DNA of 50,618 bases, counting the filler, from Jimgerdemannia flammicorona (taxonomy: Eukaryota), in assembly GCA_003990765.1 (NCBI GenBank). It is 2 parts of 2 records of this genome, joined end to end, with 100 filler letters (N's around TTAATTAATTAA, not from the genome) between each part and the next. Parts side by side here need not be neighbours in the genome. Positions count along the whole stretch, not along the records: positions 1 to 25,264 come from RBNJ01000860.1; 1 more part is not named here. The stretch is one strand, 5' to 3'. Below the pieces are notes generated by a model. The model was not told the DNA's origin and made no database searches. It was given only the letters and a program-made list of their open reading frames with translations. This document shows, one piece after another, positions 1,179 to 50,441 of this stretch. Every line of letters starts with the position of its first letter. Within the stretch, counting starts at the first letter, position 1. The position numbers were made by a program, and so were the translations under genes.

Positions 1179-2737
1179 TGTAATGGTGACCCCAGAATAA
1201 TGACATCAGTACAGAAGATAGTCTTTTCTTGCAAGCCACCAGATCAGAGTATAAGAAGATTATATAGATGAGATGAGTAATAATGACCAACTGTGAGTCA
1301 TTGTAACCACAGTATAGTATCTTGAGAAATATAAAAGAAGAATCAAGGAACTGCAGTAGCAGCAACCAATAAGACCCACAAATTCCAAAATAGCTCAAAG
1401 ACTTATCATAAATAAAATACCTACTGTCCACCAAATCTCAAGGTCAAGAAACCACCAAGGTACCTCAGTTGAAGAAAGAATGTTCCAAGATATCAGAAGA
1501 GCTATGAGGATCTGCTCAAGAAAGACTCCTAGTATTAACCTAAGTACTGGTGATCCTTATCACTATATCCTCTACTGCCATGAAATGGAAACCAGGATTA
1601 CTATTGCTACTGAATACCTCCAAATGTGGCAGGAATATGAAATAAGAAACCTTCTCTGCTAGGAGTTCCTATAGGCCAGTACTCAAGAGCTATAAGATGC
1701 CACTCCTATGGATATATGCAAAACAAGAACAGCTAAGAAGATCCATCAGATCTTCAGATATGTACTATGATCGAACCCCAACTTAGAGTATATTAGAGTT
1801 TCAGATTTCAGAGACCTGTCATTCTGCCATATCAATGTACTAGAAGCCAGAGTGGCTACAGAAGCCCAGTCCACTATCATCCTCAATAGTGATGAAGTAG
1901 AAGACTTCTAGCACTCCATCCTTCAGGACAACCCAGACCAATTCTTACAAGAATTGATCTCAGTATTCCAAGGCCCAAGCATCCAGGTTAGACCTCCTCA
2001 AGACCCCACATTTGTTCTCTATTTTGTAGAAGAGAACCTCATAGACTGAAGAGCTCCAGATCTCCTTGTTCTTGATTTCTCCATCACTAAATGTGATGAT
2101 GTTATTGGCAATGATGCCATCCTATATGACATATGTGAAATGCATGATAAAGTATACAAAGTATGCAAAACATGTGACCTATATGATGAATTTATAGACC
2201 TCATCTCCTTTGAAGATATCCTGACCTCTGATGATAAAGCCCCCATAGTCCTGAACATTCTGCTCTAAGTTCCTTAGTTATACTGAATAATGCCAGCACT
2301 AGTATTTAATGTAATACTAAATAATGCCAGTACTAGTATTCTGATATGATATTAAATTATATATACCAGTATCCTAAACCTGTACAACCATCAGTGCCAA
2401 CTCTGGAACTTAGCAGTTTTTCCTAACCTAGTATTTTATTTTAGTTATTGGAATTTATATTTAGCTTTATATCTTAGCAACTATTAAATTATATTTTGTA
2501 TAAATACTCCACTTATTTTCTCTGAAATAAAGTCAGTCAATTTAGTACAATATACACAATCCCTTGCAAACAATCTAAGAGATAACAAGATAGTTAAAGA
2601 TAAGAAGTTTGAGGACTATAAGACCTTGGAAAGGCACTCCAATAAGAACTTGCTTATAATAAACTTGAGTTAGTCTAAGAGATATACCTTAAAGAGAATC
2701 TGGCATATTTGAAGGACTCAGTGACTACTACATAATA
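1179..2737 (+). mobile_element. Solo LTR of the dUTPase-gypsy family (copy 1), ATAT TSD
   Basis: Starts TGTAATGG and ends ...TACATAATA (decayed TG...CA). Aligns along its length with 4435-5969. ATAT at 1175-1178 and 2738-2741. Copia RT continues across it. Confidence 0.92.
1417..2268 (+). pseudogene. LTR-encoded ORF, copy 1 (284 codons, start decayed to ATA, internal stops)
   Basis: One frame from ATA-CCT-ACT to ...IVLNILL-TAA; homologous to 4666-5472. Confidence 0.8.
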
Positions 2738-4434: not shown

Positions 4435-4665
4435 TGTAACAGTGACTCTAGAATGATGACATCAGCACAGGAGATAGCCTTTTCTTACAAGCTATCAGAT
4501 TAGAGTACAAGAAGAATGAGATGAGCAATGATGACCAACTGTGAGTTATTGTGACCACAGTTCAGATATCTTGAGAAATATAAAAGAAGGATAAAAAAAC
4601 TGCAGTAGCAGCAACCAACAAGACCCACTAATTCAAAAATAGCTCAAAGACTTATTATAAATGAA

Positions 4666-5472
4666 ATGCCTGCTGCTCACCAAACCTCAAGATCAAGAAA
4701 CTATCAAGGTATCTCAGTTGAAAAAAGAATGTTCCAAGATATCAGAAGAGCCATAAAGATCTGCTCAAGAAGGACTCCTAGTATCAACCTGGATACTGGT
4801 GACCCTTATTATTATATCCTCTACTGCTATGAAATAAAAACAAGGATCACCATTATCACTGAATGCCTCCAAATGTAGTAGAAGTATGAAATAGGAAATC
4901 TTCTCTGCCAGGAGTTCCCACAGGCTAGCCCCCAAGAGTTACAAGATACCACTTCTATGGATATACATAAAGCAAGGATAGCTAAGAAGATCCATCAGAT
5001 CTTCAGACATGCACTATAGTTGATCTCCAACTTGGAGTATGTTAGAGTTTCAGATTTCAGAGATCTGTAATCCCACTATATCAATACACTAGAAACCAGG
5101 GTAGCTACAAAAGCTCAGTCCACTATCACCCTCAATAGTAATGAAGTAGAAGACTTCTGACATCCTATCCTTCAGGATAACTCAGACCAATTTCTGTAAA
5201 GATTGATCTCAGTATTCCAAGATCCAAGTATCCAGATTAGACCTCTTCAAGACCCCACATTTGTCCCCTATTTTGTGAAAGAGAACCTCATAGACTGGAG
5301 AGCCCCAGACCTCCTTCCTGCTACTACTGAACATGATGACATCATCAGTGATGATATTATCCTGCACAACATTGAAGCATATAAAATATATAATGATGAT
5401 GAATTTGCAGATCTTATCTCCTTCAGTAATGATGAGGATGAAGCCTCTATAGTCTTGAACATTCTGCTCTAA
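4666..5472 (+). pseudogene. LTR-encoded ORF, copy 2 (269 codons; MPAAHQTSRSRN...IVLNILL)
   Basis: ORF-track pieces 4666-4878 and 5203-5472 are in the same frame. Internal stops correspond to sense codons in other copies. Confidence 0.85.
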
Positions 5473-5484
5473 AGTCCTTTGGTT

Positions 5485-5610
5485 ACACTGAGTTATGCCA
5501 GCACTGGCATTCTGATGTAATACTGAGTTATGCCAGTACTGGTATTCTGATGTAATACTGAATTATTCCAGTACTATTTTCCTGTATCACTGAAATTATA
5601 CCAGTATCCT
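5485..5610 (+). repeat. ~35-bp tandem repeats in U3 (enhancer-like)
   Basis: Unit (t)actgagttatgccagYactggYattctgatgtaa occurs about three times; similar repeats at ~2280-2370 and ~18510-18640. Confidence 0.7.
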
Positions 5611-5733
5611 GAACCTATACAACTATCAGTGCTGACTCTGGAACTTAGCAGTTTTTCCTGTTCTGGTATTTTATTTTAGTTATTGGAATTTATATTTAGC
5701 TTTATATCTTAGCAACTATTGAATTATATTTTG

Positions 5734-5766
5734 TATAAATACTCCTCTTATTTCCTCTAAAATAAA
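5734..5766 (+). promoter_or_regulatory. LTR TATA box and polyadenylation signal
   Basis: TATAAATA followed ~20 bp later by AATAAA, conserved in the plus-strand LTR copies. Confidence 0.65.
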
Positions 5767-5972
5767 GTCAGTCAAGTTCACTTATACACACTTCCTTACA
5801 AGCAATCTAAGAGAAAACAAGATAGTTAAAGATAAGAAGTTTGAGAACTATAAGACCTTGGGAAGGTATTCCAATAAGAACTTACTTATAACAAACTTGA
5901 GTTAGTCTAAGAGATATACCTTGAAGAGAATCTGGCATATTTGAAGAACTCAGCGACCACTACATGATAACT

Positions 5973-5990
5973 TGGTGTCCATTGGCTAGT
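5973..5990 (+). promoter_or_regulatory. Putative primer-binding site
   Basis: TGGTGTCCATTGGCTAG begins 3 nt after the 5' LTR end; cognate tRNA not identified. Confidence 0.6.
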
Positions 5991-6215
5991 AATTTAAGAT
6001 AAATTCCTCACTTTTAAGCTGAAAAATGAACAACTCCCACAATAACTACCCTGACTACAAGAGTCACTCCTACAAGAATTCAAGATAAGATGGAAATATG
6101 TCCCCCCACATTCTATGGATATACTACTGAAGAGTCAATCCTGACCTTCATTGAAGACTTTGAACAATTTGCCACCATACAAGCCCTTGGTGTGGATGCA
6201 CAATTGGCCCTTCTA

Positions 6216-6253
<38 letters not shown>

Positions 6254-6319
6254 CTTTTTTTTTTTTTTTTATAGTCTCTTGGACTGCCCTTTATTACTGA
6301 AGTCTATAATGTATACAAT

Positions 6320-9300
6320 ACAAGTCACCCCTGTCCTCAACCAATGCCCCGGGGGCCTAAACCCTCCCTCTCATCCTCCTCCTGCCCAAGCACCACCCAA
6401 TTACCCACTACCTGAACCCTCCCACCACTCTTCTGGGTGATATGCTGCACCAGACCCCTGTGGTACCCCCCACCCATCCCCCAACCCTGCTACCAACTAT
6501 TCAAAATATCCAACATCAACCATTCCCACCTAGCCATCTTGTCACCAACTCCGACCCAGTGCTCTTCCTCAAATACATAAACCCAGTGCCCTGCTAGTCC
6601 AACCCACATAGCCAAAGCCTAACTAAGGGTCAGCCATTCGTCCCCAACTCCACCCACCAGACGCTGGCAGAGCTCTCCCCACCTCCCCCCTTCCTCTCCC
6701 TCTCTGGCCCCCAGCCCTACCCTGTCCATAATACCTCTCCAAAACTCCCCCAAAACCTCACATTCACCAAGCCAATGTTCAGGCATTTGTATCACTCCTC
6801 CCTCCTGACTAACATTGAAATAATCCTCATACTTGAATATCCCACCATCCACCAAGTATCCAGACCGATAGTTCAACATCACATTCTGCCATAGGACCCA
6901 CCACCACACCACCCAGAACTTGGGGGGCAGCCACTACCACACCCATTTGCTCCAAAGCCAGAGTCCATTCTAATCTCACTCCTCCCCAATTCTAACCCTC
7001 TGCCAGGCTTCTGGCCACAGGTCCCCGCCAAGGCCCCACAGACACTCCAGACCCTTGCCAAGCTGAAAGTCCTCCACCAAGACCCCACCCAATAGAAGCC
7101 TGTCCCACTGCCACATCTGCGGTCCCCAATCCTCTTCGGCTTCATCACCTCACCACCGAAGTCCAATCTTCTTAGTACCATCCACCACCCCCCACCAAAA
7201 GCCTATAAACTGCATCTTCCTGCTCCCTTCTATGGCCACCATCACAAGCAGATCCCCAGAGCCACTGCATGGGGAGTACCAAACCTCCCACACCCTCTGC
7301 ATGAGGGGCACCCACTCCTGCCCCCTGAGCTCACTCGCCCTTCGCAGCCACCAGGCCCTCAGACATAGAAGTCGCTTAGTAAAGTCCACTAAGCCTAGCC
7401 CACCTCTTTCCAAGGGCAGTGTGAGCACCTCCCAACCAACCTGGCTTCGCCATCCTCCCCAGATCCATGACCTCGCCATCTTCAATAACTCCTTAACCAC
7501 CTAGGTTGGAAAATTCAAATGATATCCAATATACCACAGCTTCGGCATCCAGTACACATTCAACACCATCACTCTTCCGGCAAGGGACATATGCCAGCCT
7601 TCCCATCTCAGCAAAACATTACCCCACTCCAGAAGTTTACGGTTCCACCAAGCTCAGGGAAGAAGAGATCCAAACACCGAGAAGTAGATCTCCAAGTAGT
7701 GCACTGGTTCACCTGTCGGCACCACCGTCCCAATAACATCGCCACCAATAATTCCGACACCCAGCACCAGCATCTCGCATTTGTGCCAGTTAAGTTTAGC
7801 ATCAGAACCCTGCTCATACTATTCCACAGTCCTCTGTAACTCTCCCACATCTCCCAAGGAGCCTAGTCCGACCACCATATCATCAGCAAAGGCCCCCACC
7901 TTCCAGTTTACTCCTAAAATGTCCAAGCCTCCAATCTTATACTGAATCCTGTCCAGTAGTGGCTCTAGGGAAAGAGCATACAATATGGGCAACAAGGGGT
8001 CCCCTTGTGGTACCCCACATCCCAGGGGAAAGGTCACCCCCCAGTGGCCATTGATGACCAATGCCGCCTGACTGTCCTCCAAGAGGCTGATTAATGCTCT
8101 TTGGACCCCTGGCGGGATGCCAATCTACTTCAGCACTCCTTTCAGTCATAATCTCTGCACTCTATCATAAGCCTTCTCTTGGTCCAGAAACATCAATCTG
8201 CCATCCACCCCTGTTGCCTGGGCACCTTCAATCACTCCATGAACCCAGGCTGTCCCATCTCGAATCAACTGACCACTGACAAACCCACGTTGCTCCACAC
8301 TCAGAACTTGCTGGGCAATGCTCTGCAACCTCATCACCAAGATTTTCATCACCAATTTGCAGTCCATATTGAGAAGCATAATTGGCCACCAGTTCTTCCA
8401 GTCCTTATGCCTTCCCTTGTCCTTAAAGAGCAAAGAGACCAGCCCTAAGTGCTGTCCCCCAATCCAGGCACCAGACTGAAGAACTCCATCACACATAACA
8501 GTCATTTCCTCTAGCACCACACCCACCCCAGCTATCTTCTGCCAAAAATCCCAGAGAAGCCCATCCTCTCCCAGAGCTGTCTCCTTACTTGTTGAGGCCA
8601 CAACCCTGCAAATCTCCTCACCACTCACCAGGTCCCCCAATGCCCCAAGTCCCATCACAGGGTCTGGGTGCCAATCCCCCAGCTGTCTTTCAATGTTCAG
8701 AGCATCCAATTCCCCATCCTCCTCACTCCAAAGATTCCCCCACTGGGTTCGCAGTAGGTCCAGAATTGCTGGTATCCCCACCACCAGCTCGCCATTCTCG
8801 TCCAAAACTCCCTCCCACTACTGCCTCATACTTCAGGCTTGCAAAAATCATGACAAGAATCTGGTAGGCCTCTCCCCCTCCTCCAGTCCCTACCACCGCA
8901 GGTGGGCCACCATACCCTGCAACTGCTCCTCCTCCTCCCTGCATAGTACCCCTTTGAGCTCCTCCACCTCCTGCCGGATCCTCACAATATGCCAATCAGT
9001 CATGGCCCCATCCTCCAGCATACCTGCCCATCTCTCCATGAGTGCTGCTAGATGCCGCGAGGCCCACAGCACCCGCTGCCTTCACTGGGCACACTTTCCT
9101 TTTCCTGCTTCCCTCCAATACTCCTGAGCCTTCACCTTCAGCCTTCTCCAGTAGTCCCCAATCTCCAGTCCTTGTTCCCGCTATCTGCCTATATTTCCAA
9201 CCACCTCTGATTCCCATCCCTCCCACAACACCCTATCCTCCAACAGGGAAGAATTCAGTCGCCAATGTCCAGGCCCATCCTCATTTCCCCCAAACCTCCC

Positions 9301-9989
9301 CCCTCCAAGCAGCCCCCAGTGATCAGACCACGGACACCATACGACTTCTAGCACTGACCAGAAATCTGTCCCCCAACACTCTGCCATTAGAACCCAGTCA
9401 ATCCTAGAGCCCAGTCCTGCCGCCCAGTAGGTGTACATCCACCGATCAGCCCAAAAATGTCTTCCTGAGTCTACTAGAGAACACAACCTCTCTATCTCCA
9501 ACCAGTCACCCAACCCACCACTTTCACTCTGCACATCTCTCCCTCCATCAGTTCTGTCCAACTCCTTATCCTGTACCATGTTGAAGTCACCCCCCATACA
9601 GTCTAACCCAACTTCTCCCAACACACCAGCCTCCTTCAATCCGCGGATCCATTCCACCCTCTCCCCTCTCTCAGCTGGGCAGTAACAGGACCCGACTGTC
9701 AGCAGGCCCCATCCAGGCCTCTTCCACACTCCCTACACCACCCGAGACCCCCAATGTCCAATGTTCCCAATGTCCCCCATCCCTTTCCGAACGAGAATAC
9801 ACACTTTTCCCCTGTGCCCCCCCATTCCTTAGTTCAATCCTGTAAGTCCACATCTGCCTTATAATGAACATCCTGCAGTAAGAAGAGGTCTGCATCCAGT
9901 CCCTTAAGCCAACCAAAAATATACTTCCTCCTAGCCGACCCCTGTAGCCCATTAACGTTCAATGAGAAAATCCTAGTTGTACTGTTCAT
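6320..9989 (-). pseudogene. LINE ORF2 (APE endonuclease and reverse transcriptase), disrupted; 3' end approximate
   Basis: IFSLNVNGL, FLLQD, GGDFN, SRIDW, SDH (endonuclease); WPIMLLNMD.K, DQEKAYDRV, GVPQGDPL, AFADD, PLERGGLGL (RT and downstream). Confidence 0.92.
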
Positions 9990-10020
9990 ATTGAAGAAAT
10001 GTTGCAATAGAGACCCCAAT

Positions 10021-11913
10021 CTATAATTCCATACTCATCTCATCCCCTGTCAGATCCAAGTGCCACTCAGCTTCTACTTCACCCTCAGCATTATCCTGAG
10101 CATCCAGTGCTCCCAAGATTTCCTGACATTCCACTCTGTCCACTTCCTCCATATCAGCCCTGTAGTCCAAGCAGACAGTGTACCACTTCTCCAGTCTCTT
10201 CTTCGAATTCCACAAGAAAAATGCTCTATCACTTGCAATTCTCCTAAGTTCCTCCTCCCTCTGATCATCAACCTGATACTCAACTGACTTCAGGAGGACC
10301 ACCAGGATCTCATTCCTCATCTTCCTTGGCACCTCCTCCCCCTGTAGGATCTCCTCCCAATGCTTCTCCTCCAACACCCTGAAGTCCTCACCCCCCAGCT
10401 CTTCAGTTGCCACCCCTTCCAAGGTCTTCCACATCCACTTCTCCTCATCCACTGCCTCCACTGCCCCCTGAGCGATTTGTCCACCATCCACCTCAGGGTC
10501 CACCAGCATGCTCCTTCTCACTGACTCATCCTACTCCTCATCTGGCACATCCATTAGCTCCTCCTCTCCCTCTGCCCCATCCAGAACACTATACTGAGGG
10601 TGCACACCCTCACCCATTTTGGCATCCATCTCCAAATTGCCCTCCCTCCCCTCCCCACCACCAATCTGAACTCCGCCCTGGGCCATCTCTCCCCCCTCAG
10701 CCCAGGCACTCTTCTGTGACCCTGCAACTCCCTTCCCTGAGCTTCCACCAGCCCCACCCTCACCCAACTTTGCCAACAGTTCCTTCTGGATCCTCCTCCC
10801 CTGCATCTTTTCCCAGGCCCCCTTCTCCATCCAGACCCTCTTCCCATCCACAAACTCCTCCCAGGCCAATTTCCTCCTCACCACTGCCCCTTCCAGGTCC
10901 TCCAGAGCCTCCAACAGGTCCTTCTCCTCCTCCAGAGTCTCCTTCACCCTGGTGACCCTACACTCCACTGGTCCCCACCTCAGTGCCGCTGGTCAGTCTC
11001 TCGACTTCCCCATATTCTCCTTCCTAGCCAGCCTCACCCTGACATCGACATTGCCAGTTCGAAGCTCCGTGCCCTCCCAGACCTTGAACCCAACATCCAC
11101 AATCTCGCTATACTCCTTGACTGCCTCCACAACCAACTCCCTGGTCCTTTCCTTTGACACCATCAGGAGGTCCAACACCATCAACTGTACCACTCGGAGG
11201 TCCCAGCACATATACCGGGCCATAGGTACCACAACTCCACCAACCATCACCCCCTTCTCCATGGCTGCCAATAAGGCATCTTTCTTCTCAAACCCCACCT
11301 CAATCCCTTCCTTCTCCCTCAAGAACTTCACTGATGCTGCTCCCTTAGCCTTCTGCGCCACCAGTCCCAGAATCATCCTCGCCATCACTGCTAAGTCCCG
11401 GAAGCACATCATGACCATGAATTCTGACCTTGACTTCTTGAGTAATGGGGCCGACACTATGCCCGTCACCCCATCAGCCAGGTCTCCAGGCCTCGTGTCC
11501 ACTCCAAGTCCCAAATTGCCAACTGCCGTCACATCTGGATTTTTTACCAGATCTCCAGTCACAGCTCCATCAACAGTCACATCTCCAGCCCCTACTCCAG
11601 TCCCTTCCCTACCACCAGAAGTACCCCAGGGTACACCTCCCTGACCCCCAGCAGTCACCATCGATGCCTTCCCCAGGCCCAGCCAACCATCAAGCTCAGA
11701 AGCCATCTTCCCCATTCTGACCTTGTCAGCAAAGGTTGACCTCTCCCCTCCTCTCTGCCTCAGACTGCCCCTCCCTCTGCCACCAGGGCCTCGGCTAGCC
11801 ATCAAGGCCTCTGGCATCCCCAAACCATCTCCCCTCCTCTCTACCTGCTATCAGCCAAAGGCGCCATCATCCCCCTGGCCAGTACACTCACCAGTTCGAT
11901 CGTTGCTGTCCAT
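10021..11913 (-). pseudogene. LINE ORF1, disrupted
   Basis: Homologous to the open ORF1 at 24109. Gly/Arg-rich N-terminus and acidic coiled-coil-like C-terminus; stop lies ~30 nt before the ORF2 ATG. Confidence 0.85.
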
Positions 11914-13254
11914 GTTGTTAGTCATCGGACACCAAAAATGTTATAGAAAGTGTTGTCTGAGTCTTGTGTTACCCGAATGTTACTGGTGAAAGATGTTGGC
12001 CCTTCTACTAGTCAGCCTCAGAGGACCTGTCAGAGACAAGTTTAATATAGTCACTATTGCTGATAATAGTGCAGCCAAACTTGCCAACATGAAGGCCTTC
12101 CTCAGAATAACATACTATATCAAAGAGATCAAGCAAGCTCTCAAGAATTAACTCAATACTATCTGCCAGAGACTTAGTGAAGATCTCAACTCATTCTATA
12201 CCCAAATCTGTCACCAGATTGTCTTGGCTGGCTATGATGATGTCCTCAAGGAACAAATAGTGGATTCAACCTTCCTCAAAGGAGTTCACTCTGAAATTGC
12301 CTTAGCAATCTGGTCTACTCTAGCTGTACTGACTCTTGATCAGAAAGTGGTCTTTGTACAGAGATATTGGACTGCCAGACACTCTGCCGAACACTCAATA
12401 GAGAAAATAACTGACATCAAGATAGAGCCATTAAAGTTAACTAGTATTATACCTGCTACAGTTGTAAATAGACAACCAATCCCACCTACCCCCAAGGTAG
12501 CCAAAGCTGACCTAGTGGAGGAACTTACCAAGCAGTTCACTAAGATGACTACATACCTTAGTGATATTATTAGAGAAGTCTGAAGTACCAATAGGAGACC
12601 AGTGCAGAGATTTGTAGCTGCAATAGAAGAATACAATATCATATGCTTCAGATATAGAGAAGAAGGCCACTATGCAAAGAATTGTATGACCGAAATAAGA
12701 CACAAAGCCTAACTAAGCAATGCTAGCAGAACTAGAGAACAAACTAATACAGTAGTCATCAAGGAGATTGGCAATACTGATGATGAAGAATACTATGAGA
12801 AGCTTGAATTCTACTCTACTATTGAAGATACCAGAACCTGGTCCAAGCCCTATGACAAGAAGAGCAACAGCAAGCCAGTTGGAAGACTAAAGAAGACTCT
12901 AGCTATCACTATTCAAAGTAAGACTCAATCTAAGGAGATTGATCAAGATATAGAGTTAGATAAAGCTACCTACCAAATCATTGAAGACACTACTCTAGTC
13001 TCAGGAGAAAGTGAAAGTAAGAAGGAACAGAAGCTATGCAAGACCAAGATCCACCAGTATGATATCTACAAGAATCTCAAGAAACAGAAGGTCAATACTA
13101 CTTTTAGACAGCTAGCCAAAGTCTCTGCCTTCAGACAGCAGTTGAGAGTAGGACTTGTAACTACTGCCAAGAATCAAGAGTACAAGATTGTAGAAGCTCA
13201 CAATACATAGAAAGAATCTGAAAACTCAGGTGAAAAATCTGAAGACCAGCACAA

Positions 13255-13630
13255 GACATCAGCCTATACCCCATGTCAGATTGAAGACTGTATCTTTGAT
13301 GCCATCATTGATACCAGTGCTGGAGGATGCCTTATGAGCAAGAAGACAATTGACTGCCTAGGCTGGGATATTGAAGAGTCTACCAAGATGGTCTATGTTA
13401 TGTACAGCAGATGGTACATAAGATACCCCCCTTGGCAAAATCTGAGAAGTCTCCATCAAGATAGGAGGAGCTACTATCTTAGTAGATGTGATTGTTATAA
13501 GTACCACCAACTATGATATCCTCATTGGCAACCAATAGCTTTACAAGGCTAAGACCATTATTGACCTCAATGCCCAGAAGATACAGATCAACTATAGAGG
13601 AAGAAAGATATGAGTCTCTATTAATATCTA
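13255..13630 (+). pseudogene. Gypsy aspartic protease
   Basis: FDAIIDTSAGGCLMS (D-T/S-G-type active site) and downstream YDILIGN. Confidence 0.85.
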
Positions 13631-13985
13631 CAAAAGAGTCCTACCAGATATAGAGAAAGGAGATGAAGAGGACACAGAGGTCTTTATGCACTCAGTGAAT
13701 AAGAACAAAAACAAGAACAAGACACCTAAGCTCACAGATGAGCAGTAGTACAACAAGATCATTAATGGCTATACCCCTTAAGGAAGATACTCCCATGGTA
13801 CTAGGATGTACTGCTCTGAACATCTGAATGACTGCTGGTCCTATATCAGTGAAGTCAGAAAAATCCACCAATAGAAACATGAGCAAAAAGCCACTGAAGC
13901 AAAAAGGAAAGCTGAAGAAGATGACCAGCCCCTAGAGCTTCAAGCTGACAGTGATGATGAGGAGGAACAAGAACCAGATATCACC

Positions 13986-14385
13986 CTCAAGGTCAAGAAG
14001 TTCTACCCTGAAGCCAAGACCCCAGAATACAAAACTGAAGGAGCCATAGGAATAGACCTTGCCAGCATTCAAGATGCTACCCTTGAACCACAGACCACTA
14101 CCCTACTTGGTACTGGAATTAGAGTCAAGCTGCCAGAGAACCATACCAGAATTATCAAGACCAGAAGTAATCTGGTCAAAAGTGAAATCTCAGTTGAAGG
14201 AGGAGTAATTGACCCTGATTATACTGGTGAGATCTTCCTTATAGTCAGGAATCACAACCCCACCACCCCATTTGAAGTCAAAAAGCATGACAGGATTGAC
14301 CAGATGCTAATCCACGAAATCAAGAAACCCAAGATCACTGAAGCCATTAAACTCATTAAGATCAAGAGGCTTTGGATCTACTGGA
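13986..14385 (+). pseudogene. dUTPase domain within gypsy pol
   Basis: LKVKKFYPEAKTP...GIDL...TGI...RSNL...GGVIDPDYTGEI...DRIDQML...RGFGSTG; all five trimeric dUTPase motifs are recognisable, with a frameshift just before motif V. Confidence 0.93.
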
Positions 14386-14559
14386 AGAGGAGCCTATGCC
14401 ACTATCAAGATTATCAAACTTGAGCACAAGAAAGATAAGGACCAGAACAAGCACACATATACTATTGGAGAAAACTTTCCTCTGGAAGAACAACTTCTTA
14501 AGATCCTGCACCAGAATGAAGGAGAACTTGCTACAGACTTCAGAGATATCTACAATCAA

Positions 14560-17082
14560 GAACCCAAGTACTATCATGAAGTTGACACTGGTGATACCAA
14601 GCCCATCTATCAGAAAGCTAGACTCATACCACTTACCTACAGAGAATGGCTGCAGGCAGAACTCAAGGAAATGGAAGAAGCCAGAATTATTAAGCAAGCT
14701 ATCAGTCCCTGGACTTCACCCATTGTCCTTACTCCAAAGAAAGAAAGCAATCCTAGAGAGTTTGTGACAAGACTCTGTATTGACTACAGGAAGCTTGATG
14801 CTATCACTAAGAAAGATAGGCAGCCCTTGCCAAATATTCAAGAAATCCTTACCACCCTTAGAAGTAAAGCCAAATACTACACCATCTTAGATATGTTCTC
14901 AGGCTTCCATCAGATTGGTCTCACTTAAGATATCAGTGAGAAATCAGCCTTCATCACACCTAATGCCACCTATATCTACCTGTGAATACCATTTGGAATG
15001 TGCAATACCCAGCAAGTTTCCAGCAAATAATGAACAGAGTCTTCAGCAATAAGATTGAAAAATGACTCTTTGTCTATATTGATAATGTGATCATCTTCAG
15101 TAACACTACACAGGAATATATCAATCACATACAGCTAGCCCTCAGGAGCATGGCCTTTACATCAAGTCAAAGAAATACAAGTTTAGCTCAAGAAATTGCC
15201 TATCTAGGACACCTCATCAACTAGACCAGAATCTACACAGACCTCATAAAGATTGAGGCTATTGCAGTCTACCTGAGACTCAGAATGACCATAGAAGTCT
15301 ATGCCTTCCTTGGACTGGCCAGCTACTATAGAAGATTCATCAAAAGATACTCCAAAATTATAGCACCTATCTATGAGCTACTGAAAAAGGAAATCAAATT
15401 TGAATAGACCAAGGAATGCCAAGGAACCTTCAATAAACTCAAGACTAGATTGACCCAAGCACCTATCCTCAGAAGACCAGATTGAAATCTAGAATTCATC
15501 CTGTAGACAGATGTGAGTACTATAGGACTTGGAGCAGTCCTAGCTCAGAAGAAAGATGGATATGAATATGTCATCTCCTATGCAAGCTGAGGTACTGATG
15601 GAGCAGAACAGAACTATGAGACATATAAGCTCAAATGCTTAGCAGTAGTTTGGGCAGTAGACAAGTTCCACTACTACCTAGCTGGAAAACACTTCACCAT
15701 TCAAATAGACTATTCTGCTCTTGTCTGGCTATTCTACATTCTGAACCCCAAAGGAATATATACTAGATAGATCTATAGACTGTAAGAGTATGACTATACT
15801 GTTAAGCACCACTCAGGAAGAGCCAAAACCAATGCTGATACACTCTCAAGGGCACCTCAAAATATCTCCATCAAGATTACTCAACATGAATAAGAAGTTA
15901 TACTATGGATTAATCAGCTACCTTAGACAGTGGAAGATGTTTAACCACCTTGAACCCTGGACAATCACTATTATCAACTGGACTTGAAAAGAGTTTGAAA
16001 TAGACAACACTATACTCAGAAAAGGAGAAAAGCTAGTAATATTTGAATACAAGAAGTATCAAGCAATGAAGGAAGTATACAAGCAAGGATACCTAAGAGA
16101 AACCAATATATATGATAAGGCAAGAAGAACCATATGGTGGCCCAAGATAGAAGAAGACCTATACCAATTTGTCAAAGAGTGTGACAAGTGCCAAAAACAG
16201 AAATAAGATCAGTAAGACCAGGTACCTGGGTTATCAAGAATTGAGCCTATCCCCTTCCACCACATTACAATAGATATCATTGGGCCACTACCAGTAATAC
16301 TATCAGGAAACTACTATATTATAGTTATTATAGACCTCTTTACCAAATGGATAGAAGCAAGAGTATTACAAGAAGTCAATACCCTCTCTATAGTTGACTT
16401 CTTATACTGAGAAATCATCTGTTACTACAAGATACTGAAGCAAATCACAACAAACCACAGCACAGAATTTGCCAATAGATTTCATGAGATAATGTATCAG
16501 AAATATAAGATCCAGTATATCAAGACTACTACATACCACTCTCAAGGAAATAGACAGACAGAGAGAACCAATAAGACCCTCAAGAACATTCTGGTAAAGA
16601 TCTCAGAGACATATAAGAATTGAGATAATTATCTTCCAACTGTCCTCTCTGTCCTATGAGACATATGGTCACAGAGCACACACTTTACCCCAAGGGAACT
16701 GCTCTTCAGAGAAGAAGATTCTGATGGAACCTCAGCTACAAATCTAGACCTAACTTGGAGACAGATCAATACAGAAATCTGGAGACTATACCAAATCAGG
16801 AAGAAGGCTGAAGATTATATCATCAAGTCACAAGCACTGATAAAGAAGAATGTAGAAAAGAATTACAAGACCCTAGAACCTATCCAAATCAGAGAAAAGG
16901 TCCTACTGTATCGAAATATAGTAGAAGCCTCATAGTTGTAAAAACTGGAGCCTAAATGAGAAGGACCTTTTTATGTGCAAGATATCAAGAGAACTACCTT
17001 CTGGCTTAGGAAAATCTCAGGGACCATACTGCCTACTATGGTGCACAGAAATAGACTCAAGAAGTACCACAAACCTATATAA
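14560..17082 (+). pseudogene. Gypsy RT, RNase H and integrase
   Basis: SPWTSPIVL, RLCIDYRKL, LDMFSGFHQI, YIDNVIIF (RT); TDVS.IGLGAVL, CLAVVWAV, NADTLSR (RH); WWP, CDKCQK, IDIIGPLP, EGPF, HRNRLKKY (IN). Confidence 0.93.
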
Positions 17083-17446
17083 GAGAAGTAAAACATAATG
17101 ACTGTCTATGAGGTTCTAGTCTACAAATCATAACAGCATATCCCATGACCAGCAGGCTATCTGTCTAAACTATTCTCTAAGAGATACAGTACTAGTAACT
17201 ACTCATCTATGAGACTTTTGAAGCCAGAGGAGTTCAAACCATCAACTAATTGGTCAAGATTAGAATCAGGCCCTTGCTCTATATGAAGAGAGTGACTGTT
17301 CACCATCATGCCAAAATACATAAAGAAGATGCCAGCCCATAAACACCACTTTTCAACCCCTTGCTAGAGGTTATGGGATCAGCAAATTTTTCAGGACTGG
17401 ACCAATGAATAAGAATACTCAAGAAGATCCTTATTCAGGAAAAAGA

Positions 17447-18996
17447 TATAATGGTAACCCCAGAATGATGACATCAGCACAGGAGATAGTCTTTCCTTAC
17501 AAGCCACCAGATCAGAGCACAAGAAGATCATACAACATATGAGATGAGCAATAATGACCAACTGTAAGTCATTGTAACCACAGTTCAGATATCTTAAGGA
17601 ATATAAAAAAAGGATCAAGGAACTGCAGTAGTAGCAACTAACAAGACCCATCAATCCCAAAATAGCTCAAAGACTTACTACAAACAAAATGCCTGCTGCT
17701 CACCAAACCTCAAGGTCAAGGAACTATCAAGGTATCTCAGTCAAAGAAAGGATGTTCTAAGACATCAGAAGAGCCATAAGGACCTGCTCAAGAAGGACTC
17801 CTAGTGTCAACCTAGGTACTGGTGACCCTTATCATTATATCCTCTACTGCTATAAAATGGAAATAAGGATCACCATTGCCACTGAATGCCTCCAAATATA
17901 GCAGAAGTATGAAATAGGAAATCTCCTCTGCCAGGAGTTCCCACAGGCCAGTCCCTAAGAGTTATAAGATGCTACTCCTATAGACATATATGAAGCAAGG
18001 ATAGCTAAGAAGATTCATCAGATCTTCAGACATATACTATGATTGATCCCCAACTTGGAGTATGTTAGAGTCTCAGATTTCAGAGACCTATTATCTCGCT
18101 ATATCAATGTACTAGAAACCAGAGTAGTTACAGAAGCCCAGTCCACTATTACTCTCAATAGTGATAAAGTAGAAGACTTCTGGCATCCTATCCTTCTGGA
18201 CAACCTAGACCAATTTCTGCAAGGATTGATCTCAGTATTCTAAGGCCCAAGCATCCAGATTAGACCTTCCCAAGACCCCACATTTGTCTCCTATTTTGTG
18301 GAAGAGAACCTCATAGACTGGAGAGCCCCAGACCTTCTTCTCACTACTACTAAATGTGATGATATCATCAGCAGTGATGTTATCCTGCATAATATTGAAG
18401 TATGTAAAATATATGATAACAATGAATTTACAGACCTCATCTTCTTCAGTGACAATGAGAATAAAGCTCCTATAGTCTTGAACATTCTGCTCTAAAGTTC
18501 TTTAGTTATACTGAGTTATGTCAGCACTGGCATTCTGATACATATAACACTGAGTTATGCCAGTACTGGTATTCTGATGTAACACTGAATTATTTCAGCA
18601 CCATTTTCCTGTACTACTGAAATTATACCAGCATTCTGAATCTGTACAACTATCAGTACTAATTCTGGAACTTAGTAGTTTTTCCTGTTCTGGCATTTTA
18701 TTTTAGTTATTAGAATTTATATTTAGCTTTATATCTTAGCAATTATTGAATTATATTTGGTATAAATACTCCTCTTATTTCCTCTAAAATAAAGTCAGTC
18801 AAGTTCACTTATATATACTTTCTTGCAAGCAATCTAAGAGAAAACAAGACAGTTAAAGATAAGAAGTTTGAGGACTATAAGACCTTGGGAAGGCACTCCA
18901 ATAAGAACTTGCTTATAACAAACTTGAGTTAGTTTAAGAGATATACCTTGAAGAGAATCTAGTGTATATGAAGGACTCAGCAACTACTATATGATA
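17447..18996 (+). repeat. 3' LTR (copy 3) with LTR ORF at 17689-18495
   Basis: Follows PPT AGGAAAAAGA. ORF runs ATG-CCT-GCT to NILL-TAA, 807 nt, the same length as copy 2. Confidence 0.93.
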
Positions 18997-19215: not shown

Positions 19216-20804
19216 TGTCACATAGTGGATACTGAGTTCTTTAAATATATCAGATTCTCTTCAAAGTATATCTTTTAGACTAACTATAAGTTTATTATAA
19301 GCAAGTTCTTATTAGAGTACCTTCTCAAGGTCTTATAATCCTCAAACTTCTTATCTTTAAACTATCTTGTTATCTCTTAGATTGCTTGTATAGAATTGAG
19401 TATAAGTAAACTGAGAGAACTGAGAGAACTGACTTTATTTCCAAGAAAATGAGAGGGATATTTATATAAAATATAATTCAATAGTTGCTAAGATATAATA
19501 CTAAATATAAATTCCAATAACAAAATAAAATACTGGAAAACAGAAAACTTCAGTTATAAGTACAAATTTAAGTGTCTATACAAATGGTTGCATAAGTTCA
19601 GGATGCTGGTAGATTTCAGTTGCACAAGAAAAGGATACCAGAAGAATTTCTGAGTTGTGCAAGATCAGAATGCTAGAAGAATAACAATTATATAAAAAAC
19701 TCAGAGCTGAATGTTCAGGATCCTGGAGGCTTCATCTTTGTTGCTGCTAGAGATTAGAGATAGGATATTTTTAAAAAAGATAAGATAAGTAAATGTTTTG
19801 TCTATTTCACATATGTCATTAATTAGCAGGATGATGTTATCACCAATGATTTCATTATAGATTATATCATCATATTCAGTAGCAGCAGAGAGAGTAAGAA
19901 GATCAAGAGCTCTCTAATCTATAACATTCTCTTCTACAAAATAAAAGACAAATGTGAGGTCTTGAGAAGATCTAATCTAGATACTGAGATCTTAGAATGC
20001 TGAGATTAATCCTTATAGAAATTGATCTGGATTGTTCTAGAGGATGAGATTCTAGAACTCTTCTATCTCATTACTATTGAGGGTAATAGTAGATTGGGCT
20101 TCTGTGGCCACTATGACCTCTAGTACATTTGTATAGTAGGCTGATAATTTCTTGAAGTCTGAGACTCTAGTTACTCCAAGTTGGGGATTGATCATAGTAT
20201 ATATCTGAAGATCTGATAAATCTTCTTTACTGTTCTTATTTTATATGTATCTATAGGGGTGGTATCTTGAATCTCTTGGAGACTGGCCTGAGGAAATTCC
20301 CAGCAGAGGAGGTTTTCTATTTTATATTCCTACTATATTTAGAGATATTTGGTAGCAATAGTGATCCTTATTTCTATTTCATAGTGGTAGAGAATAAAGT
20401 GATAAGAGTTACTAGTACTCAGATTGAGGCTAGGAGTCCTTCTTGTATAGATCCTTATGGCTCTTTTGATATTTTGGAATATTCTTTCTTAGACTAAGAA
20501 TCCTTAGTGATTTCTAGATCTTAAGGTTTGGCAGACAGCAGGCATTTTATTTATAGTAAGTCTTTGAACTATTTTTGAGCTTTATAAGTCTTATTTGAGT
20601 TACTACTACTATAGTTTCTTAGTCCTTCTTTTATATTTCTTAAGATGTCTATCTTATGGTCATAATGACTTATAGTTGGTTATTATTGCTCGTCTTATAG
20701 CCTAGGTGAGTCATGCCATATGATCTTCTTGTGCTCCAATCTGGTGACTTATAATGAAAGACTGTCTTCTGTAATTATGTCACTATTCTGAGATCACTAT
20801 TATA
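19216..20804 (-). mobile_element. Solo LTR (copy 4, diverged subfamily), ATAT TSD; LTR ORF at 19701-20545
   Basis: Reverse complement of the LTR family. ATAT at 19212-19215 and 20805-20808. The ORF has one 1-nt deletion near 20173. Confidence 0.9.
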
Positions 20805-21043: not shown

Positions 21044-22691
21044 TGTAATAGTAACCTCAGAATAGTGATATCATTACAGAAGACAGTCTTTCTTTACAAG
21101 CTACTAGATTAGAGTATAAGAAGATCATATAGCATAACTCATCCAGACTACAAGATGAGTAATGATGACTAATCATAAGTCACCATAATTACAAGATAGA
21201 CATCTCAAGAAATATAAAAGAACTAAGGAACTGCAGCAGTAGTAACTCAAACAAGACTCATAAAATCCCAAAATAGTTCAAAGACTCACTATAAACAAAA
21301 TATCTGCCACCCACCAAACCTCAAGGTCCAGAAACCATTAAGGCTTCTCAGTCTAAGAAAGAATATTCTAAGATATCAGGAGAGCTATAAGGACCTATAC
21401 TAGAAGGACTCCTAGCCTCAATCTAAGTACTAGTGACCCTTATCACTTTATCTTCAACTACTGTAAAATAGAAACAAGAATCACTATTGCTACTAAATAT
21501 CTCTGAATATGGTAAGAATACAAAATAGAAAACCTCCTCTACTATAAATTCCCTCAGACTAGTCTCCAAGAGATATAAGATGCCACTCCTATAGATATAT
21601 ACAAATTGAGAGTAGTTAAAAAGATCTATCAGGTCTTCAGGCATATATCTTAATCAATCCTCAACTTAGAGTATACCAGAGTCTCAGACTTCAAGAAATT
21701 GTCAGCCTACTATACAGATATACTAGAGGCTATAGTGGCTATAGAAGTCCAATCTACCATCACTCTAAGAAGTGATGAGGTAAGAGAGTTCTGAAATCTC
21801 ATCCTCAAGAACAACTCAGATCAATTTCTACAAGGATTAATCTTGGTATTCCAAGGCCCCAGTATCCAGGTTTAACTCTTTTAAAATCTCACCTTTGTCT
21901 CCTACTTTGCAGAGGAGAACCTTATAGATTAGAGAGTCTCTGATCTCTTTACTCTCTCTACTACTGCTAAATATGATGACATCATCAGCAATAATATTAC
22001 TAGCAATGATGTTGTTCCATACAATATATATAAAATATACAATATATGTGAAGTATATAAAATAGACAAAATATTCACTGACCTCATTTCCTTCAAAGAC
22101 CTCCTATCTCTAACCTCTAACCTTGATGACAGTAATGAAGATGAAGTCTTCAAGATTCTGAATATTCTGCTTTAAGTTCTCTGTATAACTGTAATTCTTT
22201 TAGTATTCTGATCTTATATAACTTAGAAATTATTTTAGTATTCTGATCTTGTACAACTAATTGTACAGATACTTGAATTTGTACTTACAACTGAAGTTTT
22301 CTATGTTCAAGTATCTCATTTATTTAGTTATTAAAATTTATATTTAGTTTATAACTTAGCAACTATTGAATTATATTTTGTATAAATACTCCTCTCATTT
22401 TTCTGAAATAAAGTCAGTAGTTAAGTAGTTTAAGTAGTAAAGTAATCAAGTATTCAAATACTCAAGTCTCTAACTACTCAAGAAGTATAGAAGTTTCAGT
22501 TCTCTACTTAATTTCAAGCAAGCAAATCCAGGAGATAACAGAACAGTTTAAAGATAAGAAGTTTGAGAACTATAAGATCTTGGAAAGATACTCTAATAGA
22601 ACTTATTTATAAGAAACTTATAGTTGGTCTAAGAGATACATCTTGAAGAGAATCTGATATACTTGGAAAACTTAGTGCTCACTATGTAACA
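21044..22691 (+). mobile_element. Solo LTR (copy 5), ATAG TSD; LTR ORF at 21300-22175
   Basis: TGTAATAG...TGTAACA, with ATAG at 21040-21043 and 22692-22695. ORF spans 292 codons in one frame. Confidence 0.9.
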
Positions 22692-22711
22692 ATAGATACA
22701 GAGTGCTTGAC

Positions 22712-24026: not shown

Positions 24027-25264
24027 CATCTTTCTCCGGTAACATTCAGGTTACACAAGACTCAGACAATACTTTCTACAACGTTTTTGGTGTCCAGTGA
24101 CTAACAACATGGATGGCAATGATCGATCTGGTGAGCGTACTGGCCAGGGAGGTGGTGGTGCCTTTGGCTGGCAGCAGGTGGGGAGGAGGGGAGATGGTTT
24201 GGGGATGCCAGGGGCCTCGATGGCTAGCCGGGGCCCCAGCGGCGGGGGAAGGGGAGGTCTGAGGCAGAGAGGAGGGGAGAGGACAACCTTTGCTGACAAG
24301 GTCAGGATGGGGGCAATAGCTTCTGGGCTGGATAGTTGGCTGGGCCTGGGGAAGGCATCGATGGCTACTACTGGGGGTCAGGGAGATGCGCCCCAGGGTG
24401 CTTCTGGTGGTAGGGAAGGGGCCGGAGTAGGGGCTGGAGATGTGACGGCTGATGGGGCTGTGACTGGGGATCTGGCAAAAAATCCAGATGTGACGGCGGT
24501 TGGCAATTCCGGACTTGGAGGGGGCACGAGGCCCGGGGACCTGGCGGATGGGGTGACGGGCATGGTGTCGGCCCCGTTACTCAAGAAGTCGAGGTCCGAA
24601 TTCGCGGTCACGCTGTGCTTCCGGGGCTTGGCAGTGACGGCGAGGATGATTTTGGGGCTGGTGGCGCAGGAGGCTAAGGGAGCAGCGTCGGTGAAGTTTT
24701 TGAGGGGGAAGGAAGGGGTTGAAGTGGGGTTCGAGGAGGAGGATGCCTTGTTGGCAGCCATGGAGAAGGGGGTGATGGTTGGCGGGGTGGTGGTCCCTAT
24801 GGCTCGGTGTATGCGCTGGGACCCCCGGGTGGTACAGTTGATGGTGCTGGACCTCCCTACGGTGTCGAAGGAAAGGACCAGGGAGTTGGTTGTAGAGGCG
24901 ATGAAGGAGTATGGCGAGATTGTAGACGTGGGGTTCAAGGTCTGGGAGGGCACGGAGCTTCGAACTGGAGACATCGATGTCAGGGTGAGACTGGCTGGAA
25001 AGGAGAATACGGGGAAGTCGAGGGACTGGCCAGCAGCGCTGAGGTGGGGCCCGGTGGAGTGTAAGGTCGCTAGGGTGAAGGGGACTCAGGAGGAGGAGGA
25101 GGACTTGCTGGAAGCTCTGGAGGACCTGGAAGGGGCAGTTGCAAGGAGGAGATTAGCTTGGAAGGAGTTCGAAGCCAGGACGGTGGTGGGAGAGGTGAAT
25201 GGGAAGAGGGTTCGGATGGAGAAAGGGGCCTGGGAGAAGTTGAAGGGGAGGAGGATTCAGAAGG
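24027..25264 (+). mobile_element. Young LINE copy; 5' end and open ORF1 (ATG 24109) running into the assembly gap
   Basis: CATCTTTCTCCGGTAACATTCAGGTTAC 5' end; ORF1 uninterrupted for ~385 codons; CpGs retained; closely similar to 10750-11995. Confidence 0.92.
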
Positions 25265-25364
25265 NNNNNNNNNNNNNNNNNNNNNNNNNNNNNNNNNNNN
25301 NNNNNNNNTTAATTAATTAANNNNNNNNNNNNNNNNNNNNNNNNNNNNNNNNNNNNNNNNNNNN
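25265..25364. other. Assembly gap with artificial TTAATTAATTAA all-frame stop linker
   Basis: N-run, TTAATTAATTAA (25309-25320), N-run. Confidence 0.9.
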
Positions 25365-27635: not shown

Positions 27636-27639
27636 AGTA

Positions 27640-28388: not shown

Positions 28389-28641
28389 AATTTTATACTA
28401 CTTATAATATCAGTAAAGATAAAGTGAAAGAAATATAATTAAAATATTCTTTGGTCATTCCACTGCTTAGAGCTTGAGACTTGCACATAAGAGACGGACA
28501 CCACCACAAATGTTATACGTCCTTGAATGTGCCAGCAATAAAGAGACTTCAAGCCGTTTGGATACCTGATGGGCGGAAAGAAGGGTGATTTGGGAATGAT
28601 AATGCAGAGTGCAAAACGCATACATCATATATACCTGCGCT

Positions 28642-28722
28642 GCGTAAGAGGCCGCCGCGTAAGAGAGGCTGCGTAAGAGAGCCCCGGCGTAAGGGCTGCC
28701 GCGTAAGAGTATTGGGTAAGAG
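28642..28722 (+). promoter_or_regulatory. Array of six GCGTAAGAG-like motifs upstream of the AAA ATPase
   Basis: Copies at 28642, 28657, 28671, 28687, 28701 and 28714, with variable GC-rich spacers. Confidence 0.6.
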
Positions 28723-28807
28723 TAAAGTCAATAACGAAGTCACATGCTCATTAGCCATTAATAGCCAATGAAGCCTTCGCCACAGGTAAAGCCTTCCCAG
28801 CCACTCC

Positions 28808-31800: not shown

Positions 31801-32225
31801 TCTCCGGCTCTGACCTCAAAAATTTATGTGTCTCCGCAGCACTGGCTGCCGTGCACGAGGCAAGTTTGGGTTTACTGCTATCGTCAGCCGGTGGTGCGGA
31901 AGCATCCGCCTCGTCACAAACCTCCTCTTCACCCGCTTCCTCGTCGCCCGCTTCCTCGTCGCCCGCCTCCTCGCCCGCCGACACAGTCTCTCAACATGAC
32001 AAGATCCCGGTCCGAGTCCTCAGACCTCACCATTTCGAAAAGGCCCTATCACAGGTTACCCCGAGCTGTTCCGAAGATATGTACTCCCTGATCGAGATAC
32101 GGAAATGGGACGCGATTTACGGGGACGGTGCGAAGCAGAGGAACAAAAAGCCAGTGATTGGGTTTGGCACAGGGGAGGTGGGTTCTGTGGCGAGCTCTGT
32201 AAATAATGTTAAGTTGGCCGAGTAA
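28808..32225 (+). CDS. Msp1/ATAD1-like AAA+ ATPase, long form, probable mitochondrial presequence (multi-exon)
   Basis: GLLLFGPPGTGK|T, VVFIDEVDS, EFM-type QFMVEWDGL, AATNRPFDLDDAILRRMPRR, FSGSDLKNLC; GT-AG introns; Arg/Ser-rich N-terminus. Confidence 0.88.
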
Positions 32226-32456
32226 ACCAATAGGAAAGTAGATTTTTGGGGTTTCTCCCTTGTAAGATTAGAGGGCATAAATGCACACGGTGGTATGTAT
32301 ATAAATATGCAGGATAATTCGTATGATACAGGTTCACTTTTTGAAGTCCTTTCAAATCGAGAAAATCACATTTTATGTAATTATAATATACGAGTCATGT
32401 GACGGGAATGATTTCCAATCAACAGTTCCGCCCTCACACTGCGTGCCAACATTCTC

Positions 32457-32990: not shown

Positions 32991-33277
32991 TGAAGAGAGC
33001 AGATGATAGAGATCGGGTACTTGGTTGCATTGGAATCCGTGTTATGAGGACATTTGTACTGCATGTTTCGCTCGTCGCTGTTTTGTATATAATGATTTCG
33101 CATAGAGAAATACAGGTCGCTTACAATATCTAGTTCGACACCAAGTAAATTTCCATTAACATAAGTCCAAGGTTTACAACCATGACCCAGATGAACTAAC
33201 AAGACTGATGTTCCACCCTCAAAATTCCCCTTTTTGCATCACATAATCAAGCACTGGCGCCATTACCCAGAACCTGC

Positions 33278-34316: not shown

Positions 34317-34354
<38 letters not shown>

Positions 34355-50430: not shown

Positions 50431-50441
50431 AGACACGAAAC

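Follow-up and report, generated by a model that had tools for sequence, protein, structure and literature searches.

The superantigen gene sag of MMTV lies in U3 in sense orientation and hence occurs in both LTRs. Its product Sag is a type II membrane glycoprotein, and the sag mRNAs are either spliced or start in env. The nef gene of HIV and SIV and the bel1/tas gene of foamy viruses start in the internal region and merely overlap U3. Tas of foamy viruses acts as a transactivator through an acidic activation domain, and its gene has a dedicated internal promoter.

For plants, the accessible parts of a review describe additional frames (aORFs) of LTR retrotransposons (Grande gene23, RIRE2, Retand, PvRetro13 and env-like frames) that are family-wide and without similarity to known proteins (PMC7264820). 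Their place is the internal region, where most of them follow pol and precede the 3' LTR and many are in antisense orientation, and the Grande aORF is transcribed from its own promoter and has a nuclear product (PMC7264820). The phrases “in the LTR” and “within the LTR” do not occur in the accessible parts of this review (PMC7264820). As for fungi, the part available of a second source lists dUTPase-bearing Ty3/gypsy elements, namely PosPlaTy3-5 of Postia, elements of Phanerochaete and Tmt1 of Tuber, with the dUTPase domain of PosPlaTy3-5 situated between protease and RT; a figure legend names an “add. ORF” of unknown function and gives no position for it (PMC2864245). In the open-access literature, as far as it was accessible, LTR retrotransposons of fungi or plants were nowhere described as having a protein gene within their LTR, and the term “LTR ORF” referred there to MMTV sag or to polyprotein ORFs.

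Here we analyse a 50.6-kb stretch of DNA (the window) with five copies of one LTR that share a reading frame. We consider it probable (roughly 0.6) that this frame is what hypermutation has left of a genuine accessory gene, one contained entirely in the U3 of the LTRs in a dUTPase-bearing fungal Ty3/gypsy element. The data given below show that U3 contains a selected protein gene, of which each new LTR receives a copy. Accessory genes of LTR retroelements are already known; what is new is an accessory gene that a fungal Ty3/gypsy element carries completely within its LTR and that encodes an orphan family.

Regarding its position MMTV sag is the nearest precedent, as the frame in the window also lies in U3, in sense orientation and thus in both LTRs. 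The differences are that the element is a fungal Ty3/gypsy element without env, that a promoter of its own upstream of the frame is suggested, and that the protein is hydrophilic at its N-terminus, with neither a signal peptide nor a membrane span or anchor visible by eye, unlike Sag. Homology to Sag or Nef was found neither by Pfam (E≤1, intact members), which we take to include models of both, nor by the fold searches of BFVD and PDB (E≤0.001). Tas is the closest analogue of the mechanism that we guess at below; nef and tas nevertheless differ from the gene in the window, which lies entirely inside the LTR and shares no sequence or fold similarity with them. In contrast to the plant aORFs the frame is inside the LTR, in sense orientation, fungal, and also present in solo LTRs without an internal region. 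The element in the window resembles PosPlaTy3-5, as described in the accessible part of that source, in its dUTPase between protease and RT (PF00692, 7.3e-19). The arrangement is otherwise known mainly from a few retroviruses, and the main reading would mean that fungal Ty3/gypsy elements can carry retrovirus-style accessory functions.

Five LTR copies and the reading frame in their U3

One repeat of approximately 1.55–1.65 kb occurs five times within the window, and no further copies were found there (five-copy alignment, blastn):

1179..2737, plus strand: copy 1, solo LTR (alignment; flanks without gypsy internal sequence)
4435..5969, plus strand: copy 2, 5' LTR of a full-length Ty3/gypsy element, TGTAA...ATGATA (five-copy alignment, ends read)
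17447..18996, plus strand: copy 3, 3' LTR of the element of copy 2 (alignment, blastn, ends read)
19216..20804, minus strand: copy 4, solo LTR, second subfamily (alignment; flank search)
21044..22699 (3' boundary approximate), plus strand: copy 5, solo LTR, second subfamily (alignment; flank search)

Copies 1 to 3 belong to one subfamily and copies 4 and 5 to another. Copies 1, 4 and 5 are regarded as solo LTRs because gypsy internal sequence is absent beside them. Copies 2 and 3 (87.8% identity by blastn) are the LTRs of a single element with TG..(C/T)A ends; the LTR starts with TGTAA in copy 2 and with TATAA in copy 3, and both copies close in ATGATA. Target-site duplications of the LTRs were not discernible in the AT-rich, mutated flanks. 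The features of this element between its LTRs are:

5973..5985, plus strand: primer-binding-site-like TGGTGTCCATTGG, TGG-type, 3 nt past the 5' LTR (sequence read directly)
6213..11997, minus strand: non-LTR (LINE) retrotransposon nested in the gypsy gag (RVT_1 and Exo_endo_phos matches)
11998..17436, plus strand: gypsy internal region with many stops and frame changes (domain matches, translation)
17437..17446, plus strand: polypurine tract AGGAAAAAGA, abutting the 3' LTR (sequence read)

The internal region comprises gag with a CCHC knuckle, protease, dUTPase, RT, RNase H and integrase. Along positions 11991–17442 the pol domains follow each other in gypsy order as RVT_1 (7.8e-09), RT_RNaseH and RT_RNaseH_2 (1.3e-31 for the latter), Integrase_H2C2 (5.7e-09) and rve (8.8e-06); the E-value of the dUTPase was given above, and a D(T/S)G-type protease motif and the CCHC knuckle are visible in the translation. 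The host element of the LTRs is a dUTPase-bearing Ty3/gypsy retrotransposon, the order of its pol domains being that of Ty3/gypsy (Metaviridae). The LINE nested in its gag possesses a 53-nt poly(T) at 6218–6270 and a 13-bp target duplication, TTGGCCCTTCTAC.

Every LTR copy carries a remnant of the frame:

1417..2268, plus strand: remains of the gene in copy 1, with ATA in place of ATG and 6 internal stops
4666..5472, plus strand: focal LTR-borne gene copy (copy 2), pseudogene of 268 codons and stop, 6 internal stops
17689..18495, plus strand: gene remnant in copy 3, 6 internal stops
19701..20545, minus strand: remains of the gene in copy 4, with a 1-nt deletion and 12 internal stops
21300..22175, plus strand: remains of the gene in copy 5, with ATA in place of ATG and 11 internal stops

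According to the initial annotation all five LTRs carry the same ORF. The five copies, the shared frame and its coordinates hold, but no copy is open (6, 6, 6, 12 and 11 stops), and the ORF scan of the window gave no open frame of at least 120 codons at any of them. The frame measures 852, 807, 807, 845 and 876 nt in copies 1 to 5; the four lengths of 852, 807, 807 and 876 nt are multiples of three, as had been noticed before. We also recovered the single 1-nt deletion described for copy 4, where one N put at the deletion restores the same protein up to ILNIQL, and the conserved C-terminal end of LNILL-type is seen in the window translations. The initial annotation has the frame spread by solo LTRs; copies 1, 4 and 5 are solo LTRs with the frame, but all of them are dead and nothing working is spread in the window. 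The frames in the window are hypermutated pseudogenes of an ORF, each copy is dead, and they have no function here; for the window itself the practical point is thus modest. That the ancestral frame was open is concluded from the intact relatives outside the window, as the window alone does not show it.

The surroundings of the frame in copy 2 are as follows, with L001 being a metagenome contig that is described in the next section:

4579..4585, plus strand: TATAAAA, ~80 nt 5' of the ATG, putative promoter of the LTR-borne gene (5/5 copies and the first bases of L001)
5487..5575, plus strand: 35-nt tandem repeat, 2.5 copies, putative enhancer-like U3 repeats (92% matches, score 150)
5734..5741, plus strand: TATAAATA, presumed promoter of the genomic RNA (invariant in 5/5 copies, conserved in L001)
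5761..5766, plus strand: AATAAA polyadenylation signal, ~20 nt past the TATA box (sequence read)

Copy 2 therefore reads, in order, LTR start (4435), TATAAAA (4579), ATG (4666), stop (5472), the 35-nt tandem repeats between the stop and the main TATA box, TATAAATA (5734) and AATAAA (5761). The ATG is found 231 nt from the LTR start and the stop 262 nt before TATAAATA. The ORF is located wholly within U3, 5' of the TATA box, with an equal order in L001, and the earlier placement of the frame in U3, upstream of tandem repeats, TATA box and AATAAA, agrees with the order in copy 2.

Intact relatives, hypermutation and selection

A profile of the four readable window translations matched five proteins among 5.8 billion cluster representatives. 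One of them is a full-length protein of 271 aa (E=1.3e-120) whose two ends agree with those of the window frames and which has a tryptophan at position 118; codon 118 is a stop in 5/5 window copies. The exhaustive profile search of 1.84 billion representatives gave six matches, among them proteins of 342, 286 and 214 aa which, at approximately 20–46% identity, keep the central motifs and the acidic tail. In the metagenome protein sets the intact relatives span 271–342 aa. All relatives come from environmental assemblies, on contigs of 0.7–4.8 kb, and are named “hypothetical protein” at most. Longer or fused forms did not occur among 2424 candidates (0 matches among proteins of 476–2000 aa).

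DNA of the relatives was found for 0 of 336 stretches in a first metagenome scan and for 0 of 22 in a viral-contig scan, and a second metagenome scan yielded the single locus L001. This metagenome contig of 1345 nt (GC 43%) contains an uninterrupted frame of 343 codons, which counts 323 from its ATG onward and is followed by TATAAATA and then AATAAA; it starts with AATATAAAA, which precedes the window frames as well. Because L001 displays the frame, the TATA box and AATAAA, the layout with a gene in U3 is present in a divergent, unmutated lineage.

Outside the window this layout was read from L001.

Copies 2 and 3 were identical at insertion, and their differences therefore represent later mutation and provide a neutral control. 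They amount to 172 transitions and 6 transversions. Cytosines in CpA changed most (272 polymorphic vs 36 invariant), followed by CpC (122 vs 33), and CpT changed far less (130 vs 154). The changes that RIP of ascomycetes introduces into repeated DNA are nearly all C-to-T and G-to-A, and CpA is preferred. Judged by its sequence pattern the hypermutation of the LTR copies matches RIP, and we regard “RIP-like” as the safe term. The assignment to a fungus is based on this signature and on the kind of element.

Nearly all in-frame stops (40/41) correspond to a residue that is Gln (23), Trp (15) or Arg (2) in the intact relatives, which is explained by the fact that a C-to-T or G-to-A change turns these codons into stops. 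In the focal copy 6/6 stops fall on positions with W, Q or S in the intact relatives. This pattern concerns the view that there is no gene at all and that a frame which arose by chance, or is merely apparent, in a long and AT-rich LTR was taken for one, for which one might point to the 6–12 in-frame stops in every window copy, two of them without ATG. Intact homologues with E-values down to 1e-120, the 40 of 41 stops accounted for by C-to-T or G-to-A at Q, W and R codons, and the codon periodicity and frame-keeping indels reported below refute it, and its probability is close to nil.

To characterize unmutated copies, L001 was compared with three DNA runs, i.e. two soil metagenomes and the run of one organism, which yielded 290, 66 and 129 short contigs from related copies. 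Among the 40 listed of 199 variants, which come from contigs of approximately 150 nt that mix copies, 34 lie inside the frame. These in-frame variants are distributed 9/2/23 over codon positions 1/2/3 (n=34; chi-square p=4e-5), and 23 of the 34 are synonymous vs 33% expected (binomial p=6.5e-5). The frame of L001 (969 nt) received one 1-nt indel and one +3 insertion, compared to six 1-nt indels in the 376 nt outside (Fisher p=0.0025).

The window copies provide a similar picture for gaps. In the five-copy alignment 9/10 gap runs within the frame are multiples of three vs 3/27 in the remaining LTR (upstream 1/7, downstream 2/20; Fisher p=1.6e-5 for frame against rest). This bears out the initial annotation, according to which indels keep the frame inside the ORF (9/10) and not upstream of the ATG (1/7).

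RIP does not make transversions. Between L001 and copy 2 transversions number 58/32/59 on codon positions 1/2/3 (p=0.009), and position 2 has the fewest in every comparison of L001 with the window. As those on position 1 equal those on position 3, the selection seen between L001 and the window is moderate. Between the window subfamilies codons 1–215 show 0.032–0.045 transversions per site vs 0.074–0.094 in the LTR 3' of the gene, and the most conserved part of the LTR is formed by the 5' 260 nt upstream of the ATG (0.009–0.030). The ratio dN/dS among window copies, which had been proposed earlier as a check, turned out to be uninformative: Nei-Gojobori values are 0.25–0.39, but the neutral pair of copies 2 and 3 already gives 0.39, and mutation consists nearly entirely of transitions. 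For L001 vs the window copies dN/dS is 0.12–0.17, with dS saturated.

Taken from the listed variants and short contigs, the three-periodic and mostly synonymous changes support purifying selection on the protein in unmutated copies. The constraint appears to be real but moderate outside the core. The earlier idea of a selected accessory gene in U3 is hereby strengthened, the grounds being intact relatives, synonymous three-periodic variants, scarce frameshifts and frame-keeping indels.

A fragment of a host or foreign gene that was transduced into the LTR and is hitch-hiking there, its openness reflecting recent transposition, could mimic some of these observations. Active elements keep their whole sequence intact for a time, protein databases record open copies only and thereby introduce an ascertainment effect, and the raw dN/dS among window copies (0.25–0.35) is regarded as not below the neutral 0.39. 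The search however brought up neither host-like nor longer relatives (0 matches among the proteins of 476–2000 aa); the 6 representatives in 1.84 billion are all short orphan ORFs, and the frame is still open at 20–46% identity. Above all the reading is disfavored by the three-periodic, mostly synonymous variants and the frame-keeping indels, neither of which it predicts, and we consider it very improbable.

LTRs of retrotransposons are treated as non-coding and are masked by annotation pipelines, a view that is altered by a selected gene in U3, and solo LTRs need not be mere relics of a promoter. The intact copies in soil and root metagenomes and in one organism offer a system for testing self-regulation or defence evasion.

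Possible expression and role of the product

Since the frame would belong to the 3' UTR of the genomic RNA, the gene would need an mRNA of its own. We propose that this mRNA would start at the TATAAAA situated ~80 nt 5' of an ATG in good context (ACAAAATGCC), cross the main TATA box and terminate at the AATAAA of the element, which would give an RNA of approximately 1.1–1.2 kb. The TATAAAA, the context of the ATG and the strong conservation in the 5' quarter of the LTR would fit a promoter inside the LTR. The invariance of the TATAAAA among the window copies means little because the motif consists of A and T only and is immune to C-to-T hypermutation, and in L001 the support for the upstream TATA amounts to just 10 matching bases at the contig end. 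None of the runs that contain the sequence was an RNA run, and one metatranscriptome run searched with L001 gave 0 contigs, which is no evidence either way. On these sequence features we give about even odds to the proposal that each LTR is a self-contained transcription unit with its own upstream TATA. With a transcription unit in each LTR, both LTRs of an element and solo LTRs as well could express the gene.

The product resembles no described protein in the searches performed. No credible Pfam match was obtained in the window translations or in 10 intact members (none at E≤1 in 10/10 except a chance ATG5_HBR row), there was no match in NCBIfam, and the PDB sequence profile search returned 0 matches at E≤10. 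The gag of the element itself shows no similarity to it (best E 2.5). On the level of structure, Foldseek with both models against PDB and a search of BFVD gave nothing at E≤0.001; VIA-align wide found no chain at Z≥5 for either model (best Z 4.7), and in the ESM Atlas the best feature score was 0.83 with TM≤0.33, its own model having a pLDDT of 0.35. That no domain is recognisable, as stated initially, is in agreement with the Pfam, NCBIfam, PDB sequence and fold searches alike. As far as searches and models go, the protein represents an orphan family without recognisable fold or domain, which is now open to study.

The AlphaFold2 model, calculated from a 10-sequence alignment, predicts a helical core with pLDDT 80–92 for residues ~60–160 of the member P0005, followed by a small hairpin and a disordered tail. 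If modelled alone, the core reaches pLDDT 79 and pTM 0.67 and is mostly helical. A DNA-binding helix-turn-helix domain of ParB/SopB/VirB-type came up at the level of noise, at Z 4.0–4.4 (rmsd 4.0–6.4 over 76–90 residues), tied with unrelated rows; as these score equally, the resemblance is only a lead. The homodimer prediction for residues 14–216 gave no verdict (score 0.00). The tail is acidic in 5/5 members examined (net charge −9 to −25), and its acidic-hydrophobic motif of DLISF-type and the terminal LNFLL/LNILL are conserved.

The combination of a folded core with a conserved acidic tail matches how activators are built, and the gene has the U3 repeats next to it; for these reasons we guess that the product may be a nuclear regulator that activates the LTR promoter. 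Going by the model, this is a tentative suggestion. The initial annotation had considered a transactivator or a silencing suppressor as possible roles; of the features that might point to them, the acidic tail is the one conserved throughout the family. The helical core could bind the U3 repeats just 3' of the gene, or else a host factor, and the acidic disordered tail with its hydrophobic motifs would be of the kind seen in activation domains. Carrying the thought further, every LTR, solo LTRs included, might be an autonomous gene with a promoter of its own, a product of 270–340 aa with a new fold and the poly(A) signal of the element, the product being a Tas/Tat-like activator that acts on the adjoining U3 repeats; we consider this reading rather doubtful. 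If it were true, a fungal retrotransposon would possess a positive-feedback regulatory circuit for which complex retroviruses are the sole known example to date, and silent copies would be woken in trans by dispersed solo LTRs.

The charge distribution of the N-terminus brings in a different role for a real LTR-borne gene, in RNA handling or trafficking. Here the product would be a Rev-like export factor or a packaging cofactor, with an Arg-rich N-terminus binding the RNA of the element and a Leu-rich C-terminus recruiting export or assembly machinery. The first 45 residues of P0005 contain 10 Arg and Lys and have a net charge of +8 (+5 in L001), the hydrophobic C-terminal motifs are conserved, and like retroviral accessory genes the gene is placed in the 3' UTR of the genomic RNA. 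The basic patch is however confined to close relatives and absent from the distant members P0014, P0016 and P0017 (net +1, −2 and −1), the Pfam and fold searches brought up no RNA-binding fold or family, and it can be reasoned that an element without known splicing has no obvious need to control the export of unspliced RNA. We therefore judge this role improbable.

To a similar degree improbable is a function against the defence of the host, in which the product of the LTR-borne gene would counter RNA silencing, DNA methylation or RIP, or the degradation of particles, with the tail as a decoy or adaptor. Likeness to a known suppressor was not seen; the sole Pfam row of this kind, RSS_P20 (E=0.22, 12.4 bits vs a cut-off of 25), occurred in 1/4 window translations and in 0/10 intact members, and as an anti-RIP factor the product would have failed in this genome. 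On the other hand, the element family is heavily attacked, as is evident from the RIP-like hypermutation in the window, and the short acidic-hydrophobic motifs of the tail would suit a decoy or adaptor. In addition CpG is nearly absent, its observed/expected ratio being 0.00–0.23 in the transposons of the window vs 1.05 in the host genes of the window, and 0.10 even in the intact L001.

CpG content of transposons and host genes

We calculated the observed/expected ratio of CpG for the different parts of the window, in which all transposon sequence is nearly devoid of this dinucleotide. The ratio is 0.00-0.02 in the LTRs and the interior of the gypsy element and 0.23 in the LINE. A low value (0.10) was also obtained for L001, the metagenome contig with an intact relative of the LTR gene, and the host-gene block at 28500-35800 has a normal CpG content (1.05). 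This block contains two genes of normal composition, the second with at least two exons:

28790-32225, plus strand: host gene whose product carries DUF7608 and an AAA+ lid domain
33281-35780, minus strand: host gene for methionyl-tRNA synthetase (tRNA-synt_1g, Anticodon_3, WHEP-TRS)

The near absence of CpG in the transposons and in L001, together with its normal frequency in the host-gene block, suggests a CpG loss aimed at transposons, on top of the CpA-biased hypermutation.

The LINE family

Three stretches belong to one LINE family, which gives matches to RVT_1 and Exo_endo_phos:

6213-11997, minus strand: copy that lies inside the gypsy gag (nested copy)
24027-25320, plus strand: further stretch
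about 44200-50618, plus strand: further stretch

The nested copy is flanked by a 13 bp target duplication and has a poly(T) of 53 nt. The copies resemble each other at about 66-86%. Their GC content is 50-55%. The LINE, despite being repeated, lacks the AT degradation of the adjoining LTR element. The strand skew is very strong (GC skew of about -0.45 on the plus strand), hence G is in excess on the sense strand. Where a LINE copy ends, within the filler between the two parts, there are two stretches of 44 N each (25265-25308 and 25321-25364).

Gypsy pol, possible LTR nesting and other repeats

In the gypsy pol a dUTPase is located between the protease and the RT:

14010-14366, plus strand: dUTPase domain (PF00692, E=7.3e-19)

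In the literature consulted, this arrangement is reported for only a few fungal elements. In the coded organism of run X8, one contig diverges from L001 at place 360 and beyond it resembles the 5' end of the LTR itself (TGTAACAGTGACC...). This passage suggests that one LTR is nested in another there.

A 136-nt segment related to neither LTR nor LINE is present twice (1-136 and 37663-37797, 93% identity). An AT-rich segment of ~0.8 kb forms a tandem-like duplication (26075-26579 vs 26909-27431, 26783-26906 vs 27516-27639), with 74-83% identity between the halves.
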